In this document: positions 5,608 through 29,547 of the stretch, piece by piece
Layout of the letters: every line of letters starts with the position of its first letter
Position numbering within the stretch: the stretch's first letter is position 1
Virus genome (UHGV): UHGV-0229465
DNA length: 30,267 nucleotides
DNA from: a virus
Reading direction: 5' to 3' (one strand)
Position numbers and translations under genes: made by a program
The notes under the pieces: generated by a model
What the model was told of the DNA's origin: nothing
Database searches by the model: none
What the model saw: the letters and a program-made list of their open reading frames with translations, nothing else

Positions 5608-6102
5608 ATGGCTGGAACGGCGGGGCGTTCCGGGCGTCGCCCCAAGCCAACGGCGCGCAAGGCGCTGGCCGGAAACCCCGGCAAGCGAGCCCTGAACAAA
5701 GATGAACCTGTTTTTACGCCCATCAAAGGCGTTGAGCCACCGGAGTGGTTCGCAGAAGAAAATCTCCCTCTCGCCACGATCATGTGGCAACTGACAACCA
5801 AAGAACTCTGCGGTCAGGGCCTGCTGTGCGTGACTGACCTCGCGGTGCTTGAGCGGTGGTGCGTAGCCTATGAGTTCTGGCGACGTGCCGTGAAAAATAT
5901 TGCCAGCCAGGGCAACACCATCACCGGTGCAATGGGCGGTATGGTCAAAAATCCGGAGCTGACCGCCAAGAAAGAACAGGAGTCCGAGATGAGCAGCACG
6001 GGGGCAATGCTCGGACTCGACCCCAGCAGCCGCCAGCGTCTGATTGGCCTGGCGGGGCAGAAGAAAGCCACTAACCCGTTTCTGAAAATTATCGAATCAT
6101 GA
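5608..6102 (+). CDS. Terminase small subunit (P27-like family)
   Basis: AGGAG RBS, ATG at 5608; basic N-terminus [27 protein letters not shown] typical of this family; stop overlaps terL start. Confidence 0.8.
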
Positions 6103-7832
6103 GCCGGAAATCTTACCCCAACGTAAATGCTGCCAATCAGTATGCCCGGGATGTCGTGCGCGGAAAGATTGTGGCCTGCCAGTTTGTGATTCAGGCCTGC
6201 CAGCGCCATCTTGATGACCTGATGGCGGAAAAAAGTAAGTCGTTTCGTTACCGCTTCGACAAGGACCTGGCTGAACGGGCCGCCAAATTTATTCAGCTGT
6301 TGCCGCACACCAAGGGTGAGTGGGCATTTAAGAGGATGCCCATCACGCTGGAGCCGTGGCAGCTCTTTGTGATCTGCTGCGCGTTTGGCTGGGTCAATAA
6401 AGGCTCCCGGCTGCGTCGCTTCCGTGAGGTGTATACCGAAATCCCCCGTAAGAACGGCAAATCGGCAATCTCTGCCGGTGTCGCCCTGTATTGTTTTGCC
6501 TGTGATAACGAGTTCGGCGCGGAAGTGTATTCCGGTGCCACGACGGAGAAACAGGCATGGGAAGTCTTTCGTCCGGCAAGACTGATGTGTAAACGCACAC
6601 CCATGCTGACGGAAGCGTTCGGGATTGAGGTTAACGCCTCAAACATGAACCGTCCGGAGGATGGTGCGCGTTTTGAACCGCTGATCGGTAACCCCGGTGA
6701 TGGTTCATCACCCCACTGTGCGGTGGTGGATGAATATCACGAGCACGCCACAGATGCGCTTTACACCACGATGCTTACCGGGATGGGGGCGCGACGTCAG
6801 CCACTGATGTGGGCTATCACTACCGCCGGGTACAACATTGAGGGGCCGTGCTACGACAAACGGCGGGAAGTCATCGAGATGCTCAACGGCTCGGTGCCTA
6901 ACGATGAACTGTTCGGGATCATCTATACCGTTGATGAAGGTGACGACTGGACCGACCCGCAGGTGCTGGAAAAAGCCAATCCAAATATTGGCGTGTCGGT
7001 TTATCGCGAATTTTTGTTAAGTCAGCAGCAGCGTGCGAAAAATAACGCCCGTCTGGCAAACGTCTTTAAAACAAAACACCTCAATATCTGGGTGTCGGCG
7101 CGTTCGGCGTATTTCAATCTGGTGAGCTGGCAGAGCTGCGAGGATAAATCATTGACCATTGAGCAGTTCGAGGGGCAACCGTGCATTCTGGCCTTTGACC
7201 TGGCGCGTAAGCTGGATATGAACAGTATGGCGCGACTTTATACCCGCGAGATTGACGGTAAAACGCATTACTACAGTGTGGCTCCGCGCTTCTGGGTACC
7301 GTATGACACGGTGTACAGCGTCGAGAAAAATGAAGATCGCCGGACAGCCGAACGCTTTCAGAAATGGGTGGAAATGGGCGTTCTGACCGTTACCGCTGGT
7401 GCGGAGGTGGATTATCGCTACATCCTCGAGGAGGCCAAAGCGGCGAACAAAATCAGTCCGGTCAGTGAGTCACCCATCGACCCCTTCGGGGCGACCGGGT
7501 TGTCACATGACCTTGCTGATGAAGACCTGAACCCCATCACTATCATTCAGAACTACACCAACATGTCCGACCCGATGAAAGAGCTGGAAGCGGCAATTGA
7601 ATCGGGGCGCTTTCATCATGATGGCAATCCCATCATGACCTGGTGTATCGGCAACGTGGTCGGCAAAACCATTCCGGGTAACGATGATGTGGTGAAGCCC
7701 GTCAAAGAGCAGGCGGAAAACAAAATTGACGGTGCAGTTGCGCTGATTATGGCGGTTGGCAGAGCCATGCTGTACGAGAAAGAAGACACGCTGCCTGACC
7801 ACATTGAGTCCTATGGGATCCGCTCGCTTTAA
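6099..7832 (+). CDS. Terminase large subunit
   Basis: 577-aa ORF between terS and portal; ATPase and nuclease-domain character; position and size. Confidence 0.85.
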
Positions 7833-7843
7833 CTGAGGTAATT

Positions 7844-8026
7844 ATGATCATGCTGATTCTCGCGCCTCTGGTGGGCGTGCTGGGGGCGCTTTTGCTGGCG
7901 TATGGTGCCTGGCTGATTTATCCCCCGGCGGGGTTTGTTGTTGCCGGGGCGTTGTGCCTGTTCTGGTCGTGGCTGGTGGCGCGATATCTCGACCGTACAC
8001 AGCTGTCTGTTGGTGGAGGTAAATAG
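7844..8026 (+). CDS. Small two-TM membrane protein, hypothetical
   Basis: 60-aa ORF with GAGGT RBS; two hydrophobic helices; lies between terL and portal. Confidence 0.4.
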
Positions 8027-9266
8027 TGTTCTTTTCGGGATTATTTCAACGAAAAAGTGACGCACCGGTGACCACGCCAGCAGAGCTGGCGGATGCCATC
8101 GGGTTGTCCTACGACACCTATACCGGAAAGCAGATCAGCAGTCAGCGGGCCATGCGACTGACGGCGGTTTTTTCCTGCGTCAGAGTGCTGGCAGAGTCGG
8201 TCGGGATGTTGCCCTGCAATCTGTATCACCTGAACGGCAGCCTGAAGCAGAGAGCCACCGGCGAACGTCTGCATAAACTGATCTCCACGCATCCCAATGG
8301 CTATATGACGCCGCAGGAGTTCTGGGAGCTGGTGGTCACCTGTCTGTGCCTGAGGGGAAATTTTTACGCCTACAAAGTGAAAGCATTTGGCGAAGTGGCT
8401 GAACTGCTGCCCGTCGACCCCGGTTGTGTGGTACCGAAGCTTAACAGTAGCTGGGAACCGGTTTACCAGGTCACATTCCCGGACGGCTCCACGGATGTAC
8501 TGAGCCAGGAAGATATCTGGCATGTGCGCACGCTGACGCTGGACGGACTGGTGGGGCTGAATCCCATCGCCTATGCCCGCGAGGCAATATCGCTGGCGGC
8601 AGCGACCGAAGAGCACGGGCCAGACTGTTCAGCAATGGCGCGGTGACGTCGGGTGTGTTGCGTACAGAGCAGACGCTGTCAGATCAGGCTTACGAGCGCC
8701 TGAAGAAAGATTTTGAGGAGCGTCACACCGGGCTTGGTAATGCTCACCGCCCGATGATCCTTGAGATGGGGCTGGACTGGAAGTCGATGGCGCTGAACGC
8801 CGAGGACAGCCAGTTCCTGGAAACCCGCAAGTTTCAGCTTGAAGAAATCTGTCGTCTGTTCCGGGTGCCGTTGCACATGGTGCAGAACACCGATCGCGCC
8901 ACCTTCAACAATATTGAAGAGCTGGGGCTGGGATTTATCAACTATTCACTGGTGCCGTATCTGACCCGCATCGAGCAGCGGATCAACACCGGACTGGTTC
9001 GAAAAAGTAAGCAGGGCGTTTATTACGCCAAATTTAACGCCGGGGCGTTACTGCGCGGGGATATGAAGTCCCGTTTTGAAGCCTACGCCACCGGGATTAA
9101 CTGGGGAATTTACTCTCCCAATGACTGCCGCGACCTGGAAGATATGAATCCGCGTCCCGGTGGGGATGTCTATCTCACACCGATGAACATGACCACGAAA
9201 CCCTCCGATGGCAGTAAAGCCGGTAAGCAGAAGGATAACGCCAATGCAGACGAAACAACGTCTTGA
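8026..9266 (+). pseudogene. Portal protein (HK97 family) interrupted by a frameshift near 8617-8620
   Basis: Two adjacent ORFs (8026-8646 and 8643-9266, different frames) together give a ~413-aa portal; frames overlap across 8451-8646, and the join ..AATEEHG | ARLFSNGAVTSGVL falls at a GGG run (8617-8619). Confidence 0.7.
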
Positions 9267-9894
9267 TGTACCGCTGAGTCTGAAATCTGTCAGTGACTCC
9301 GGTGAGTTTGAAGGGTATGGCTCCGTCTTTGGTGTAAAGGACAGCCACGATGATGTGGTGATGTCCGGGGCATTTGCTGCTTCCCTGCGGGCGTGGAGTG
9401 ACAGAAAAGCGTTACCAGCGCTGCTCTGGCAGCACCGCATGGATGAGCCCATCGGTGTTTATACCGAAATGAAGGAAGACGATGTCGGGCTTTACGTCAG
9501 GGGGCGGTTGCTCATTGATGATGATCCCCTGGCAAAACGCGCACATGCACACATGAAGGCCGGTTCGTTAACCGGCCTTTCTATTGGGTACGTCCTGAAG
9601 GACTGGGAATACGACCGGACGAAAGAAGCCTTTCTGCTGAAAGAAATCGACCTCTGGGAAGTCAGTCTGGTGACGTTTCCGTCTAACGACGAGGCGCGGA
9701 TCAGCGACGTCAAGAACGCGCTGGCCCGCGGGGAAATCCCCGAACAGAAAAAAATCGAAAGAGTCCTGCGTGATGTCGGACTCTCCCGTACCCAGGCCAA
9801 AGCATTCATGGCCGGGGGCTATGGCGCACTGTCCCTGCGCGACGCTGAGGATGTGGGCTCTGCACTGAATGCACTGAAAAATCTGAACTTCTAA
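9244..9894 (+). CDS. Prohead protease (HK97 / S78 family)
   Basis: Between portal and major capsid; translation consistent with HK97-type protease; alternative start at 9208. Confidence 0.8.
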   Translation: MQTKQRLDVPLSLKSVSDSGEFEGYGSVFGVKDSHDDVVMSGAFAASLRAWSDRKALPALLWQHRMDEPIGVYTEMKEDDVGLYVRGRLLIDDDPLAKRAHAHMKAGSLTGLSIGYVLKDWEYDRTKEAFLLKEIDLWEVSLVTFPSNDEARISDVKNALARGEIPEQKKIERVLRDVGLSRTQAKAFMAGGYGALSLRDAEDVGSALNALKNLNF

Positions 9895-9908: not shown

Positions 9909-11114
9909 ATGGCGGTAGATATTAAAGATGTCGAACAGGTCGCGCAGGAGCTGCAGCAGAAGTTTGACGACTTCAAAGCAAAGAACGACAAGCGCGTGGA
10001 TGCGATTGAGCAGGAAAAAGGCAAACTTGCCGGGCAGGTGGAAACCCTGAACGGGAAACTCAGCGAGCTGGAAAACCTCAAAAGCGATCTTGAAAAAGAG
10101 CTTCTTGAGCTGAAACGTCCGGCAGGTGGTGCGCAAAATAAACTGGCCACCGAGCATAAAGAAGCGTTTGTGGGCTTCCTGCGTAAAGGCCGTGAAGATG
10201 GTCTGCGCGATCTGGAGCGCAAGGCATTACAGGTGGGCACCGATGAAGACGGCGGCTATGCCGTGCCGGAAGCACTGGATCGCAACATTCTTACCCTGCT
10301 GAAAGATGAAGTGGTGATGCGCCAGGAAGCCACGGTGATCACCGTTGGCGGTTCCGACTACAAAAAACTGGTGAATCTGGGCGGCACGGCTTCCGGATGG
10401 GTTGGCGAGACTGACACGCGCTCCCAGACTGCCACCTCAAAACTGGGACTGATTGAACCTTTCATGGGGGAAATCTACGGTAACCCGCAGGCCACCCAGA
10501 AAATGCTGGATGATGCCTTTTTCAACGTGGAGGCCTGGATCAACAGCGAGCTGGCAACCGAATTTGCCGAACAGGAAGAAATTGCCTTTACCACCGGCGA
10601 TGGTACCAAGAAGCCGAAAGGGTTCCTGGCGTATGAATCCACGGATGAAACCGATAAGGTCCGGGCGTTCGGCAAACTTCAGCATATTGTATCCGGCGAC
10701 GCGACTGCGGTGACCGCAGACGCCATTATCAAACTGATTTACACGCTGCGAAAGGCACACCGCACTGGCGCGAAGTTCATGATGAATAACAACAGCCTGT
10801 TTGCCATCCGTCTGCTGAAAGACACCGAGGGTAACTATCTGTGGCGTCCGGGGCTGGAACTGGGGCAGCCGTCCTCTCTGGCGGGTTACGGTATCGCTGA
10901 AAACGAACAGATGCCGGATATCGCCGCTGATGCGAAAGCCCTTGCATTTGGTAACTTCAAACGGGGTTACACCATCGTTGACCGTATCGGCACCCGCATT
11001 CTGCGTGACCCGTACACCAATAAACCGTTTGTCGGTTTTTATACCACCAAGCGCACCGGCGGGATGCTGGTCGATTCGCAGGCCATCAAACTGCTGAAGA
11101 TTGCAGCGGCGTAA
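9909..11114 (+). CDS. Major capsid protein (HK97 fold) with N-terminal coiled-coil delta domain
   Basis: AGGAGA RBS; 401 aa; coiled-coil first ~100 aa then capsid-like domain; GC-rich hairpin directly downstream. Confidence 0.9.
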   Translation: MAVDIKDVEQVAQELQQKFDDFKAKNDKRVDAIEQEKGKLAGQVETLNGKLSELENLKSDLEKELLELKRPAGGAQNKLATEHKEAFVGFLRKGREDGLRDLERKALQVGTDEDGGYAVPEALDRNILTLLKDEVVMRQEATVITVGGSDYKKLVNLGGTASGWVGETDTRSQTATSKLGLIEPFMGEIYGNPQATQKMLDDAFFNVEAWINSELATEFAEQEEIAFTTGDGTKKPKGFLAYESTDETDKVRAFGKLQHIVSGDATAVTADAIIKLIYTLRKAHRTGAKFMMNNNSLFAIRLLKDTEGNYLWRPGLELGQPSSLAGYGIAENEQMPDIAADAKALAFGNFKRGYTIVDRIGTRILRDPYTNKPFVGFYTTKRTGGMLVDSQAIKLLKIAAA

Positions 11115-15567: not shown

Positions 15568-17392
15568 ATTTGAGCTTAAGGCGTTGATCACCGGTGTCGA
15601 CAGGCTTTCTCCCGCGCTGTCGAAAATGCAAAAGAAAATCCGGGGATTTAAACGCCAGGCGGAAGAAGCGTCACAGGGTGGGCTGGCGCTTGGTGGCGGA
15701 CTGGCAGCGGGTCTGACGCTTTCCCTGAAATCTTATGCCGATCAGGAAAACGCCGCCACCGGGCTGAAAGTCGCCATGATGGATGCGAACGGCGAGGTTG
15801 GAAAGAGCTTTCAGGACATCAATAAACTGGCTATTGGCCTGGGTAACCAGCTACCCGGTACAACGGCTGATTTCCAGAACATGATGCAGATGCTGGTGCG
15901 TCAGGGGATCCCGGCAGAAAACATTCTGGGTTGTGTGGGTAAAGCGACAGCTTATCTTGCGGTACAACTGAAAAAAACACCGGAAGCGGCTGCCGAGTTT
16001 GCCGCAAAGATGCAGGATGCTACCGGAACGGCGTCAGAAGACATGATGGGGCTGTTCGACACTATCCAGAAGGCGTTTTATCTGGGCGTTGACGATACCA
16101 ACATGTTGTCCTTCTTCACTAAAACCAGTTCTGTTCTGAAGATGGTGAACAAGGATGGTCTTCAGGCTGCACAGAGCCTTGCCCCCATCAGCGTCATGAT
16201 GGATCAGATGGGGATGAACGGGGAGGCGGCAGGTAATGCCCTGCGAAAAGTTATCCAGTCAGGATTAAGTGTTAAGAAAATCAGGGACGTCAATAAAGTC
16301 ATGGCCCGCCAGAAACTCGGGGTACAGCTCGATTTTACTGACGGCAAAGGAAGTTTTGGCGGTCTTGATAACATGTTTAAGCAACTGGCAAAGTTGCGAA
16401 AACTGACTGACGTTAAGCGAACTAATGTACTTAAGGCAATATTTGGTGATGATGCCGAAACCATTCAGGTGGTCAATGCGCTGATCGATAAAGGAAAGGA
16501 TGGTTACGATCAGATCCAGCAGAAGATGAATAAACAGGCCAGCCTGAATAAACGTGTTCAGGCACAGCTTGGTACGTTGTCCAACCTGTGGGAGGCAATG
16601 ACGGGGACCGCAACTAACGGCCTTGCAGCTATTGGCGGCGCATTTTCTGGTGACGCTAAAAATATCACGCAATGGCTGGGGGAGTTGGGGGAGAAATTCA
16701 CGAAGTTTGCGGATCAAAATCCCCGGGTTATTCGCGGCGTCGTCGGGCTTGCTGCCGGTCTTGCGATTCTGAAACTGGGATTGATGGGCGTGGGCAGTGC
16801 CATCAGTATCGTCAGCAGGATCATGTCGATGACGCCGATTGGCATGATTGCGACGGCGATTGCCCTGGCTGCGGGATTAATTATCACTAACTGGGATGTT
16901 GTTGGACCTTATTTCAAGAAGCTCTGGGAAACCATTGGTCCTTATTTTGAGGTTGGCTGGGAACTCCTTAAGAAAGTTTTTGCCTGGTCGCCGCTGGGGA
17001 TGGTGATCAATAACTGGGGACCGGTTGTTAAGTGGTTTCAGGATATGTGGGACAAGCTGAAGCCAATTATTGAGTGGTTTACTGACAGTTCCGGTGACAC
17101 GGTCGATGCCATTAACTCTGCGCAGTGGGGCGCAGGTGCCTATGATGCTTATGGGACGGGAATACCGGCGTGGGGATACACACCTTATCCGGCGGTGGAT
17201 CCGGCTCAGTCAAACAACGCCTCCGGTGCCACAGGTCCGAATCCCTTCATGATTAACAAAGCTTCTGCGCCAAAAGTTGATGGTGAGATCAAGGTATCTT
17301 TTGTGAATATGCCACCAGGTATGCGGGTTATGGAAACGCGATCCAGCGGTATTGATGTCAGCCATGATGTTGGCTATACGCGGTTCAGGTAG
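15560..17392 (+). CDS. Tail tape measure protein
   Basis: 610 aa, Ala/Gly-rich helical protein with C-terminal hydrophobic segments; follows the chaperone frameshift pair. Confidence 0.85.
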   Translation: MAEFELKALITGVDRLSPALSKMQKKIRGFKRQAEEASQGGLALGGGLAAGLTLSLKSYADQENAATGLKVAMMDANGEVGKSFQDINKLAIGLGNQLPGTTADFQNMMQMLVRQGIPAENILGCVGKATAYLAVQLKKTPEAAAEFAAKMQDATGTASEDMMGLFDTIQKAFYLGVDDTNMLSFFTKTSSVLKMVNKDGLQAAQSLAPISVMMDQMGMNGEAAGNALRKVIQSGLSVKKIRDVNKVMARQKLGVQLDFTDGKGSFGGLDNMFKQLAKLRKLTDVKRTNVLKAIFGDDAETIQVVNALIDKGKDGYDQIQQKMNKQASLNKRVQAQLGTLSNLWEAMTGTATNGLAAIGGAFSGDAKNITQWLGELGEKFTKFADQNPRVIRGVVGLAAGLAILKLGLMGVGSAISIVSRIMSMTPIGMIATAIALAAGLIITNWDVVGPYFKKLWETIGPYFEVGWELLKKVFAWSPLGMVINNWGPVVKWFQDMWDKLKPIIEWFTDSSGDTVDAINSAQWGAGAYDAYGTGIPAWGYTPYPAVDPAQSNNASGATGPNPFMINKASAPKVDGEIKVSFVNMPPGMRVMETRSSGIDVSHDVGYTRFR

Positions 17393-17491
17393 TGTACAAA
17401 ATGATTAATGTGTTTTTGTCTGGCATAATTTGGGTTTTCAACTTTAAGTAGTTAATATAATCACTCCTTACAAATGATTGAAGGGATGATT

Positions 17492-17986
17492 ATGCGTATC
17501 TTTGTGTTTTTTATATCTGCACTTTTATCTTTTAACTTGGCAGCGGAAGAGTGTAAGTTCAGCTTTAATGAGTCAGAATTAATCTCTTCTATAGGTATTG
17601 CACCAGTTAAGCAAGAGATAGTAAAGGATGAAGGAATAACTAAGCGTCAATATGAATTCAGGAGAGAATTGTCTTTTGAAGAAATGCTTGGCGATGATGC
17701 TGATGAAAAATATGAGCCGCAGTTTTATATATCTGTTTATAATCCATCATGTCCACAAAAGGTTATTATTTGGTTTTTCAAAGACAATAAAAACACACAA
17801 GCTTTAAGTAATGAGGTCCTTGCTGGTAGAGCATTCAAGTATTTAACTGGTGTTAATGAAAGTATTTTTGAAAATAAAATGAAAAAGTTTTCAAAGGTAC
17901 AGTCATTTGAATCCTTTGATGAAAGGACGGACTCTAAATTTATAAAGAGTGGTAATGTTTATTCCATTGATGTTCAACTCAGATAG
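17492..17986 (+). CDS. Secreted hypothetical protein (signal peptide), AT-rich moron inside the tail cluster
   Basis: AAGGGA RBS 6 nt upstream of ATG at 17492 (track start 17474); signal peptide MRIFVFFISALLSFNLA; very low GC; TATAAT -10 element upstream; T-rich hairpin region downstream. Confidence 0.55.
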   Translation: MRIFVFFISALLSFNLAAEECKFSFNESELISSIGIAPVKQEIVKDEGITKRQYEFRRELSFEEMLGDDADEKYEPQFYISVYNPSCPQKVIIWFFKDNKNTQALSNEVLAGRAFKYLTGVNESIFENKMKKFSKVQSFESFDERTDSKFIKSGNVYSIDVQLR

Positions 17987-24733: not shown

Positions 24734-25266
24734 TATGCAGCCCTCACAATATAGTTAAAAGCGACATTTCGTGGGCGTGTTTCATTCGCACCTGCAGGTT
24801 TAGTCGTTGCCGCAACAACACCACCCTCTGTAATAGCCGGGTTGGGAATTGGGTAATTATCGAAGTCAATGGCTGGAGACAGGGGCGTGATTTGTTTTAA
24901 AATCGTGGTGCCTGTAAAACTTCCCAGAGTCTGGTCGTTAGTTCGTGAAGTCCAGATTCCCCAATAGTGGTTATGACTGACAATCGCACCGTCCTGAAGC
25001 GTTAATAATCCCCTTCCGTTATCCACTCCACGTCCGTCATCCCAGCCACGAATAAACTCACCGCGTAAATCAGGTAATTTATTTGTCGGATAAGCCTTTG
25101 CCAGTTCCGGGTATTCTTCAGCAGAAAAAGCTGCTCCGTTGCATTTCAGCCAGCCTGTTGGCGGAGTGGCTGAAGGCCACGGAACAGGCACACCAACGGG
25201 TAATGCTGAGCCTTCTCCCAAACCAACGTTTATGAAAATGTAGAAATAACGAGCAAATGGCATCAT
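24733..25266 (-). CDS. Alternative tail-fibre variable C-terminal cassette (Sv'), silent in current orientation
   Basis: - strand ORF with receptor-binding-tip motifs (..LPDLRGEFIRGWDDGRGVDNGRG..); its 5' end contains the right crossover site encoding ..INVGLGEG.., in frame with the constant fibre part after inversion. Confidence 0.7.
   Translation of the reverse strand: MMPFARYFYIFINVGLGEGSALPVGVPVPWPSATPPTGWLKCNGAAFSAEEYPELAKAYPTNKLPDLRGEFIRGWDDGRGVDNGRGLLTLQDGAIVSHNHYWGIWTSRTNDQTLGSFTGTTILKQITPLSPAIDFDNYPIPNPAITEGGVVAATTKPAGANETRPRNVAFNYIVRAA
25213..25238. repeat. Invertase crossover site, right
   Basis: ttctcccaaaccaacgtttatgaaaa; reverse complement matches the left site over its right half; 55 bp upstream of the invertase start. 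Confidence 0.7.
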
Positions 25267-25292
25267 TCCTGCTTTTGTCAGGGAGATCTACC

Positions 25293-25631
25293 ATGCTTAT
25301 TGGCTATGTACGTGTGTCAACAAATGACCAGAACACAGATCTACAACGTAATGCGCTGAACTGTGCAGGATGCGAGCTGATTTTTGAAGACAAGATAAGC
25401 GGTACAAAGTCCGAAAGGCCTGGACTGAAAAAACTGCTCAGGACATTATCGGCAGGTGATACGCTGGTGGTCTGGAAACTGGACCGACTGGGGCGCAGTA
25501 TGCGGCATCTTGTCGTGCTGGTGGACGAAGATTTAGAGCATGAGTTAATTAATGGCGGTTTGTCCCACTATTGTGGTTGGTATCCCCATAGAACAGGGCA
25601 AGATATAGTTGTTCATCATGTTCACTCATAA
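25293..25631 (+). pseudogene. Serine DNA invertase (Pin/Gin/Hin/Cin family), truncated: catalytic N-terminus only
   Basis: GGGAG RBS; MLIGYVRVSTNDQNTDLQRNAL...LVVWKLDRLGRSM matches recalled Gin/Pin N-terminus with catalytic Ser; similarity is lost after ~residue 85 and the ORF stops at 112 aa (family ~185-190 aa), where AT-rich DNA begins. Confidence 0.7.
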
Positions 25632-26031: not shown

Positions 26032-27129
26032 ATGAAGAAAAAAATAGCAGATCTACTAGCCGTTAAAACAAATATATTCGAAGTGTTCATTGTTGCGGTA
26101 TTAATTGCCTTGGGCGTAAATATACTGTCATCAGGCGTTGTTGGTTATTTTAACTTGTCATTTTTGAAAATGATTGTTGTTGGTGCGCTACTAATAATTT
26201 TAGGTGCCACAATCTTTCTGCGTAACGCCTATCCTATGAATAATGGGAAATATGATTTTGAGGGGGTTGTGTGTTTAGACAATGAAAAAAAAGAGTTGAT
26301 ATCAATTGAAGGCTACGATTTTTCCGAAGAGGTTAGCCGTTACCTAAAAGGATTATGCGCGGAAAATAAGGCTATTCATAAATCATGGACTGAGGGGCCA
26401 ATTGGTTATGCTTTTGATTTTAAAGGGAAGGGGATAAATAGCAAAAAAATGAAAGCAAATGCACTATTTATCGAGGCGATTGAGTATTATGTTTTAAGAA
26501 AACTTGCTCTTCATTTAAGTAGCTATTTTAATGATGATGAATCTTTTTCCGATGATTATTTGGTTAAACTAGATAGGAAAAGTATTCCTGATGTTCTTAT
26601 GGGGAATAGATTTATTGATACTTTTTCTAGAGCTATGGATGAACGTGAGCAATTTATGGATTATAGTTCTTTACCATCTATAGGTAAAGTTGTATATGCA
26701 TATGGCAATGGAGGCGCAATTTTTGACCATTTTGAAATAGTTCTTCCCAAAAGTAGTTCGCTCACAAGAGAGAGCGACTCTAGTATAAGTATTGTTACTA
26801 AAAGATTTAAGATTAATTATCGCCCTGTGTTCGAGGGATTCGGGGCTAATCTACCAATGAAATTTGGAAATCTTTATTTGGGTAGAGAGTTTAATTCATT
26901 TTCAACTTATTCAGTAGGTTTGGTAGTTACAGTGGATTTTAATGCCAAGTCTTTATTAACAACTAAGGGATGGGAATATTATTGGTGGCTTGATTCGTTT
27001 TTGGGAGAATTGGAACAATCATTTTCTAAAAAAATGTTTTTATCTAAAATATCTTGGGAGCAAAATGCAGCAATGTTTCTTATGCTTGAAAATAAGAGTA
27101 AAATGCAGCACAAGAGAGAGAATTTTTAG
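26032..27129 (+). CDS. Membrane-anchored hypothetical protein (two N-terminal TM helices, ~300-aa cytoplasmic domain)
   Basis: 365-aa ORF in very AT-rich DNA; promoter-like TTGGCC-18 bp-TATAAG upstream; Lys-rich N-terminus then two hydrophobic helices; no recognisable catalytic motif. Confidence 0.6.
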   Translation: MKKKIADLLAVKTNIFEVFIVAVLIALGVNILSSGVVGYFNLSFLKMIVVGALLIILGATIFLRNAYPMNNGKYDFEGVVCLDNEKKELISIEGYDFSEEVSRYLKGLCAENKAIHKSWTEGPIGYAFDFKGKGINSKKMKANALFIEAIEYYVLRKLALHLSSYFNDDESFSDDYLVKLDRKSIPDVLMGNRFIDTFSRAMDEREQFMDYSSLPSIGKVVYAYGNGGAIFDHFEIVLPKSSSLTRESDSSISIVTKRFKINYRPVFEGFGANLPMKFGNLYLGREFNSFSTYSVGLVVTVDFNAKSLLTTKGWEYYWWLDSFLGELEQSFSKKMFLSKISWEQNAAMFLMLENKSKMQHKRENF

Positions 27130-28074
27130 ACAAATAAAAGCAGTCTAAATATCTACATACAGGAAAATGTTCGCATCTGTCTAATGGTGAACAATAGTGG
27201 CTGTAAAAGCTGTAATTTGGGTTCGCTATGTGCTGCATGCATCGGTTGGGCTCACTGCTTATAACAGACATTAATTTTATGACAGAAAGACATTCATGCT
27301 AGTTGGAATATGCATAAAACTCCCTCTACACTGTGTTTGTATACAGTATTATTTTACTGTGCAAATAAGCAGCATTATTGTTTTCTCTGTTCAAGTAAAA
27401 AGAAATGGATACACTCACAAAGATTTTGATGGTGGCACGATAAGTGTCTTCGTTTTTATGAGAGCAGTTGTTGTGGCTTCATCACTAGTACTTAGCATCA
27501 AGACTGATTTCTTGCTGTTGGTTCAAGTACTTTATCCCATAAAAGCCCACATCTGTGGGCTTTCAAGTCACTAGGGCACCGCGGCTCCTTTGCGTATCTT
27601 TTTTTGTATCCTCACCGTCTGGTCGGTGTCCTGCTTTGGCTGCTAACTTGCTGTTTTTGTTGGAATTATCCTTACGCCACCCAATCATGATTGGTGGAGC
27701 TGGCGGGAGTTGAAACCGCAGGCACGTCGTATGCAAGAACGTGCTGCGGTTGGCTGGTGAACTTCCAATAGTGCGAGTATTGAATGATTTCCAGCTGTTA
27801 TAGATTTTACGTATTTTTTGTATGAGAGGATTTGCATCTCCTCCCACCGATCCTCCATGACTTTACTCCACTGTCTATAGGGCTGCTGTGTGCTAGAAAC
27901 GGACATTTTGGTCAACTGAGGGCATGGAAACTTGTTCAATAAATAACGTATAATCAATTGAAAATAAAATGAAATAATTGTAATATCAAAATTCAAAGCC
28001 CGTAGTGAGTATGATTATCTATTCTTAATTTCAACCTCTTAATTCTAAATAAGTTAGACAAATCGGAATGGCAG

Positions 28075-28716
28075 ATGAAAATTAAGTTAACACCAATCTG
28101 GTTATGGATAAAACAATATCAACATCCCCTTAGAGTATTGGGGGGGATTTTTTTCGGGGCCGCTTTGATAGCAGCTTTTTTTTGGATATCAGGATTTGAT
28201 ATAGAACCTATCGCATTCGCTCTGGGAATGCTTAGTTCATTGTTCTTAGCCAGCCCATCGGTAGCAGAATATTTTTTACCAGAACGTAAACCTGTCAGAG
28301 ATATGACATATGAGGAAATCTTAAATTTCATACCCAAAACTGAACCATCTCAAGATTGGCATGGGATTTCAAGGGAATGGGCTAGCGAACGATTCCTTAA
28401 AGAAGACCCACGTCTTCGTTTTCGAGCCAAGTTCATTGATGAAGGAATTCAATGTGAAAATTTTATAGAAGATTGGGCTAACAATCATCCAGATCCCAGA
28501 GCAACTGGATATTGGTATGAGCTTTATTACGACGGAGCATTCCTAGACAGGTTTTTATTGGTATCTGTGGATGGCGGTAGAGCGGATATTCCTCCACCAA
28601 AATTACAAACTAAAGAAATTAGCTTACTCAATTATCATGTTGCGAAAATACATGACACCTCTGGCACGTTAGATGAGTATATTAAACGATCTGGTTTAAC
28701 TATTGCAAAAACATAA
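28075..28716 (+). CDS. Membrane-anchored hypothetical protein (two TM helices, ~150-aa C-terminal domain)
   Basis: 213-aa ORF, AT-rich; helices at ~20-40 and ~45-63; convergent with the next gene. Confidence 0.55.
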   Translation: MKIKLTPIWLWIKQYQHPLRVLGGIFFGAALIAAFFWISGFDIEPIAFALGMLSSLFLASPSVAEYFLPERKPVRDMTYEEILNFIPKTEPSQDWHGISREWASERFLKEDPRLRFRAKFIDEGIQCENFIEDWANNHPDPRATGYWYELYYDGAFLDRFLLVSVDGGRADIPPPKLQTKEISLLNYHVAKIHDTSGTLDEYIKRSGLTIAKT

Positions 28717-28788
28717 TAAGTAACTATTCATTTTTGTCCTGAGCGGGAGGATTAAAACCTCCGCTCTCCGATTCATCACTACAGAGTA

Positions 28789-29547
28789 TTAACATTCATG
28801 ATGCTTAATTTCCAGATCGGAAATTGCAATCATTCTTATTTCTTTCAATGCACTATCAATTGCTAATCTTATTCTTTGCCCATAATCATCTGGTTCTTCA
28901 TAATCCAGTGGAGACGGTTCTAAGCCAATATTTTCGACTAACTCCTCTAATTTTATAGTTACATCAGTATTCAAAAGAATTGCTTTTGTTATTAATATTT
29001 CAGTTAACGATATCATTGCAATGCTTAATTTTTGTTGTAATTCTTTGTTTTTAGTTTGGACGTCTTTATCATTCATTGAGTTCTCAATATCTGCTTGAGC
29101 CTGCTGAATTTCTTGGTAAAATTGTTTTTCTTGCTCTTCATTAAAATATGGCTGGTAACTGCTTGCAATCCATCCTGGAATCATATGAAGTTCAATTATA
29201 TGAAATTCATTGTCTGCCCATTTTTTAATTGCTAGCAATTGTGCATAGATGAATTCATACATATCATATTTTTTTTGCCAAATTTGTTGAGAGATCCATA
29301 TCTCAGATGTTATTTTTTTCTCTATATCTTTAATAGTAACTGTGTTTATAGATAATTGTTCCCGTAGGGTTTCGAAGTTAGAATTGGTTGCAGAAATTTT
29401 AGCCCATTCTGTAATTATTGAAACTAGGAAACTCATTGCTAGGGCTGCGATAACTACGGCGAGACTTAACCAGATAATTTCTGCTGTCGAGAAATTTGAT
29501 GACTGTAATGCCTTAATAAGATCAAGCAATTGCTTTTCTGTAAGCAC
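28789..29547 (-). CDS. Membrane-anchored hypothetical protein (one TM helix, helical/coiled-coil C-terminal domain)
   Basis: 252-aa ORF on - strand; GTG start with GGGGAG RBS; one hydrophobic helix near residues 22-46 then Glu/Gln/Lys-rich helical region. Confidence 0.55.
   Translation of the reverse strand: MLTEKQLLDLIKALQSSNFSTAEIIWLSLAVVIAALAMSFLVSIITEWAKISATNSNFETLREQLSINTVTIKDIEKKITSEIWISQQIWQKKYDMYEFIYAQLLAIKKWADNEFHIIELHMIPGWIASSYQPYFNEEQEKQFYQEIQQAQADIENSMNDKDVQTKNKELQQKLSIAMISLTEILITKAILLNTDVTIKLEELVENIGLEPSPLDYEEPDDYGQRIRLAIDSALKEIRMIAISDLEIKHHEC

Follow-up and report, generated by a model that had tools for sequence, protein, structure and literature searches.

The window analyzed here, a stretch of 30,267 nucleotides from the UHGV virus genome UHGV-0229465, carries a portal gene that is split into two reading frames by the loss of a single G from a run of four. 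We consider it highly probable (roughly 0.87) that this is a genuine, recent and lineage-specific one-base deletion that inactivated the portal of an otherwise intact prophage, and hence routine pseudogenization caught at an early stage. The result is an ordinary pseudogene in a well-known portal family.

The split is a direct property of the DNA sequence and involves no statistical pattern. On the plus strand, an ORF of 206 aa (8026–8646) encodes the native portal residues 1–198; beyond a GGG run (8617–8619), which reads GGGG in intact relatives and is the site of the one-base deletion, it continues into an out-of-frame segment (8620–8646) of eight wrong residues (PDCSAMAR) and a premature TGA stop codon at 8644–8646. 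Adjoining it on the same strand is a second ORF of 207 aa (8643–9266), the translatable part of a C-terminal portal coding sequence (8619–9266; native residues 199–413) that lies in the −1 frame. The initial annotation had described two frames that overlap across 8451–8646, and these boundaries are exact: the downstream frame is closed by a TAG codon at 8448–8450 and is open from 8451 onward, and the upstream frame ends at the TGA, so that both frames are open for 196 nt. The first possible start codon of the C-terminal frame, GTG at 8643, overlaps the upstream stop codon as GTGA and would give the 207-aa product; inspection by eye of the 15 preceding bases (TTCAGCAATGGCGCG) revealed no Shine-Dalgarno sequence. 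The native residues replaced through the frameshift are ARLFSNGA, a segment with an F-x-N-G motif that both HK97 gp3 and the 9LBN portal have conserved.

When the gene is aligned to the intact portal genes of phage SfI (JX509734) and E. coli M7424, the sole indel is the one G missing from the GGGG run, and a tblastn search with the intact RX24 portal as the query assigns residues 1–198 to frame 1 (8026–8619) and residues 199–413 to frame 3 (8619–9263). Both comparisons put the junction at the GGG run, where the initial annotation had proposed it. The peptide that it had predicted for the addition of one G is recovered as well, since this change creates an unbroken ORF of 413 aa whose junction reads ...EEHGARLFSNGAVTSGVL....

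Both pieces match the same protein family over complementary segments. The 206-aa ORF covers positions 2–150 of the 321 positions of the Pfam model Phage_portal (PF04860) with an E-value of 4e-37, and the 207-aa ORF covers positions 160–321 of the same 321 (E-value 5.5e-60). After repair, the 413-aa protein scores 260.2 bits over positions 3–343 of the 343-position NCBIfam model TIGR01537 (portal_HK97), the curated cutoff of which is 112.05 bits; the N-terminal fragment alone reaches 89 bits and stays under this cutoff. Comparison of the repaired protein with experimentally solved structures gave E-values of 8.7e-52 for the HK97 portal 8CEZ_A and 7.8e-50 for 9LBN_H. The half-matches to PF04860, together with the TIGR01537 match obtained on repair, bear out the earlier description of the gene as a HK97-type portal divided between two frames, and its position between the gene for the large terminase subunit and those for the protease and the capsid is the one expected for a portal of the HK97 family. 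To judge from these matches, the gene is a HK97-family portal gene, yet it reads as a pseudogene, since a split at 8617–8619 is found where a single continuous ORF of ~400 aa should be.

The genes on either side of the portal are encoded on the plus strand. Upstream lie the intact gene for the large terminase subunit (6099–7832; 577 aa) and that for a ymfR-like small membrane protein (7844–8026; 60 aa), which directly precedes the portal as it does in e14, SfI and RX24; downstream follow the intact genes for a HK97-family prohead protease of the S78 type (9244–9894; 216 aa), the start of which overlaps the 3' end of the portal gene, and for a HK97-family major capsid protein (9909–11114; 401 aa). 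Overall, the gene order runs from the Q antiterminator through holin, endolysin, Rz, HNH endonuclease, terS, terL and ymfR to the portal, the S78 protease, the HK97-type capsid and the connectors, and then to sheath, tube, tape measure, baseplate and an invertible tail-fibre segment. The window represents the late part of a prophage that belongs with the temperate myoviruses of the SfI/SfII/SfIV/ST64B/e14 type and has a HK97-type head module. When the late proteins of the RX24 prophage were aligned to the window, 32 of the 33 matched from end to end within one frame; the portal alone was split. At its right end, the window enters a LysR fragment, and the matching sequence of E. coli RX24 (99.4% identical) runs into paoD. 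Since the whole RX24 prophage lies between paoD and tRNA-Thr/proA, the comparison places the prophage of the window at the corresponding site of the E. coli chromosome, between tRNA-Thr/proA and paoD.

Several features of the late region deserve to be recorded in their own right. A pinE-like DNA invertase gene that adjoins the invertible tail-fibre segment is truncated (25257–25631): its ORF comprises 124 aa, and the match to the Resolvase N-terminal domain ends at position 88 of 145. E. coli RX24 has this truncation too, and its annotation there is that of a pseudogene. Next to the truncated gene comes an AT-rich block (26032–29547; GC content 0.34–0.39) encoding hypothetical proteins of 365, 213 and 252 aa, for which no convincing match was found in Pfam, PHROG or PADLOC; the 213-aa protein has a marginal PADLOC match to PDC-S50 (E-value 6e-4). 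The block has the appearance of a cargo insertion that interrupted pinE and thereby fixed the orientation of the tail fibre. Between the genes for the tape measure and for DNA circularization, there is another AT-rich ORF (17474–17986; GC content 0.39; 164–170 aa) that the RX24 prophage, although collinear in other respects, does not have. This ORF matches phrog_8976, a group of unknown function, and is without a match in Pfam, NCBIfam and PADLOC; it is probably a moron. The endolysin (2030–2506; 158 aa) is 90% identical to a protein of RX24 that carries the annotation glycoside hydrolase family 24 and matches phrog_90 (endolysin) with an E-value of 8e-64, and a Pfam search returned zero matches for it even at E-values of up to 1.

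The state of the gene before the deletion can be read from very close relatives. The E. coli isolate GCA_002467725.1 and the metagenome sample SAMN17773347 both possess four Gs and hence an unbroken portal ORF of 413 aa, and their portal genes are the same as that of the window at all other 1241 bases; over 9,206 bp, the contig from SAMN17773347 departs from the window by two mismatches and the one-G gap. Contigs that encode the exact capsid protein of the window carry the intact 413-aa portal as well. The three-G state is derived and recent, since these relatives are identical elsewhere and retain four Gs. Moreover, the repaired portal gene differs from those of M7424, SfI and RX24 at 15–18 nucleotides and the encoded proteins at only one or two amino acids, a ratio indicating that purifying selection acted on the portal until very recently. 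The three-G allele is a derived, very recent and heritable one-base deletion.

The deletion is reproducible in independent data. An exact-protein look-up detected the 206-aa frameshift product, with its tail ...GPDCSAMAR, on five other public contigs: SRR28159144, ERR2789506 and ERR11491481 (Logan), and ERZ21883324 and ERZ28578236 (ENA metagenome assemblies). All five have three Gs at the site. The SRR28159144 and ERR2789506 contigs show 100% identity with the window across 15,034 and 4,765 bp, respectively; those of ERR11491481, ERZ21883324 and ERZ28578236 are 99.9% identical to it and have SNPs at 7500 and 9098 in common. The five contigs derive from at least three sequencing runs and stem from different archives and assemblers. 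ERZ21883324, ERZ28578236 and ERR11491481 are possibly assemblies of one sample or study, and the window may derive from the sample behind one of the 100%-identical contigs, so that there would be fewer independent observations; even then, a minimum of two or three sequencing experiments concur. A literature search on the run and sample accessions returned no paper. Among complete E. coli genomes, a megablast search with a 63-bp query found the three-G allele in none of 746 matching records (~740 genomes), all of which have four Gs, with the proviso that megablast needs an exact word of 28 bases and may have missed copies with nearby SNPs. Exact 37-mer scans for the allele were likewise negative in one-genome-per-species, viral and JGI metagenome contigs. 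As a separate observation, the ERZ21883324 contig carries a G>T substitution at the window-equivalent position 16223 that turns codon 222 of the tape measure gene into a stop codon (E222*). This site lies near the contig end and not far from another substitution, and the change reflects either further decay or an assembly error at low coverage (7.5x).

The initial annotation had left the choice between a homopolymer error and a real inactivating mutation, and the five assemblies, the four-G relatives and the finding that no other late gene is frame-broken favor the latter. That the true DNA contains four Gs and encodes an intact 413-aa portal is improbable in our view. The loss of one base from a homopolymer is admittedly the classic form of a sequencing or assembly error, the allele is missing from the complete E. 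coli genomes and from the three contig collections scanned, and some other assemblies with a split portal are clearly noisy (CP121673.1; ECZU29). However, such an error would have had to recur in five other assemblies, some of them a few SNPs away from the window, at a run of three to four Gs that is no hotspot for short-read errors. A systematic error of the sequence context is contradicted by more than 740 genomes that read four Gs in that same context, and the window shows no other frame break in ~24 kb of conserved coding sequence. Less probable still, and the weakest of the alternatives, is a regulated split in which the two frames are joined, and some full-length portal is made, through −1 ribosomal frameshifting or through slippage of transcription on the G run. 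The shift required is indeed −1 and is located at a G run within a frame overlap of 196 nt, but a slippery heptamer of the type X XXY YYZ is absent throughout 8451–8646, and the known cases of transcriptional slippage require runs much longer than three Gs. The longest homopolymers in the overlap are a GGGG (8553) and the GGG run itself, with none exceeding four bases. A programmed event should also be conserved, but the relatives have single ORFs, even those identical elsewhere in the gene.

It is likewise very doubtful that the two fragments form a functional portal, with an N-terminal piece and a C-terminal piece (native residues 207–413) that are translationally coupled at the GTGA and co-assemble. 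In favor of such an arrangement, one can cite the stop/start overlap, which could permit the C-terminal piece to be translated to some extent by coupling, the fact that the fragments jointly miss only eight native residues, the persistence of the allele in several samples, and the absence of additional lesions from both halves; the first two of these points could also argue against inactivation of the portal. Against it stand the failure to discern a Shine-Dalgarno sequence by eye in front of the GTG and the loss of a motif that is conserved across distant HK97-type portals; furthermore, we know of no natural split portal. The undecayed state of both halves is equally well explained by a very recent mutation, given just two SNPs in 9.2 kb. 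We attach similarly little weight to the broader notion that the three-G allele is not a dead end, either because a two-piece portal works or because toggling between three and four Gs serves as a crude reversible switch of virion production; the coexistence of near-identical three-G and four-G prophages, two SNPs apart in 9.2 kb, lends some support to such a toggle. The reading that we prefer remains the genuine one-G deletion with inactivation of the portal gene.

Broken portal genes recur in this prophage family. Other contigs that encode the same 207-aa C-terminal fragment have different one-base deletions, at the window-equivalent positions 8553, 8563 and 8595. The deletion at 8595 is shared by four contigs (L011, L013, L016, L019) in which terL is shortened too, which identifies this group as a more decayed lineage. 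The deletion at 8553 was found in one contig (L015), and that at 8563 in CP121673.1, where terL, the protease and the capsid genes are all split as well and which looks like a noisy assembly. In two further contigs (L012, L014), the split of the portal consists of scaffold gaps filled with Ns. ECZU29 combines deletions at 8168 and 8617 and thus has the three-G run on a 97.4%-identical background; it was not counted as independent evidence for the three-G allele because of the second homopolymer deletion in the same portal gene, in a T run, and a short terS call. A mutational hotspot at 8451–8643 was considered and rejected owing to ascertainment bias: only frameshifts in this interval make the gene caller use GTG 8643, and the clustering of the deletions is an artefact of the search route.

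Two further observations concern the same part of the gene. Many 'partial' portal proteins in draft genomes of E. coli, Salmonella and E. albertii end at codons 195–209, which implies that contigs often break there (~8610–8650 in the window). In one contig (L018, 2988–3624), a N6_N4 methyltransferase ORF is fused directly to the portal gene from nucleotide 606 onward, a junction that suggests a repeat or a mosaic boundary between prophage variants near the frameshift site.

What the deletion would mean for the prophage follows from the role of the portal, a dodecamer that is required for DNA packaging and for head–tail joining. This dodecamer is the docking point for the terminase and for the head–tail connector (PMC10359639). 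Translation from the normal start codon would produce 198 portal residues and eight wrong ones before it halts at 8644–8646, and the C-terminal part of the portal, for which no ribosome-binding site of its own was seen by eye, would at best be made through inefficient re-initiation at GTG 8643. The gene structure thus predicts a loss of portal function. Since the portal is essential for packaging and head–tail joining, the prophage by itself should yield no infectious, DNA-filled tailed virions, with its lysis, head-shell and tail genes remaining intact. Rescue could occur by reversion (+1 G), by recombination, or by complementation in trans from a relative in the same host. Some E. coli genomes contain the portal gene in as many as four copies, and a co-resident related prophage that provides the portal in trans could count against inactivation in a given host.

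For annotation purposes, the two ORFs should be merged into one portal pseudogene with a frameshift, and the prophage is best listed as probably non-infectious in spite of its nearly complete appearance. It illustrates cleanly how prophage decay begins, with one lesion in a late operon that is otherwise intact and with an identical relative in public databases that has remained intact. As a lineage marker, the three-G allele could help to track its host clone. In a wider context, exact-protein look-ups in public assemblies can distinguish a real frameshift from a sequencing error even when no reads are at hand.

The closest known systems are phages SfI (AFR52512.1), SfII, SfIV and ST64B and the prophages of E. 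coli M7424 (WP_000466261.1) and RX24 (WP_000466250.1), which are 97–99% identical to the window at the nucleotide level over the whole portal gene. For the phages alone, the identity of the portal is 97–98.5%, with 97.3% for ST64B. SfI, SfII, SfIV, ST64B and the E. coli prophages share the order terS-terL-ymfR-portal-S78 protease-HK97 capsid with the window; their portals are encoded by single 1242-nt ORFs with a GGGG run, whereas the window has GGG and two ORFs.

Two of the known relatives are themselves defective. ST64B of Salmonella Typhimurium is described in PMC5322425 and PMC7067206, with reference to Figueroa-Bossi and Bossi 2004, as non-infectious due to a frameshift that splits a tail assembly gene into sb21 and sb22 and that is conserved across ST313 isolates; reversion has been reported for ST64B. 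The parallel is close, as both cases concern the same phage group and an essential virion gene that is frameshifted in an otherwise intact prophage, with the mutation inherited within a host lineage. The two differ in that ST64B is affected in a tail assembly gene and its defect has been proven experimentally, whereas the window is affected in the portal and its defect is deduced from the sequence. The parallel with e14 of E. coli K-12, drawn in the initial annotation, stands only in part. A portal remnant of the same family is indeed present there, with ymfR upstream, and BeeE and the portal of the window are identical over the first 136 residues, after which they diverge. BeeE is, however, an N-terminal remnant of 157 aa that owes its state not to a frameshift but to a large internal deletion that joins beeE to jayE. 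The C-terminal half of the portal and the head genes are gone from e14, whereas the window retains both halves and the whole late region and carries a lesion of one base.

A more distant relative is HK97 itself. The portal of the window is homologous to HK97 gp3 (PDB 8CEZ/8FQL; PMC10359639) over residues 27–385, the region that underlies the E-value of 8.7e-52 given above for 8CEZ_A. The two elements also share the partners of the portal in head formation, namely a S78 protease, a capsid protein with the HK97 fold and a HNH endonuclease gene beside the terminase. HK97 is, however, a siphovirus, whereas the prophage of the window has the sheath, tube and baseplate genes of a contractile tail.
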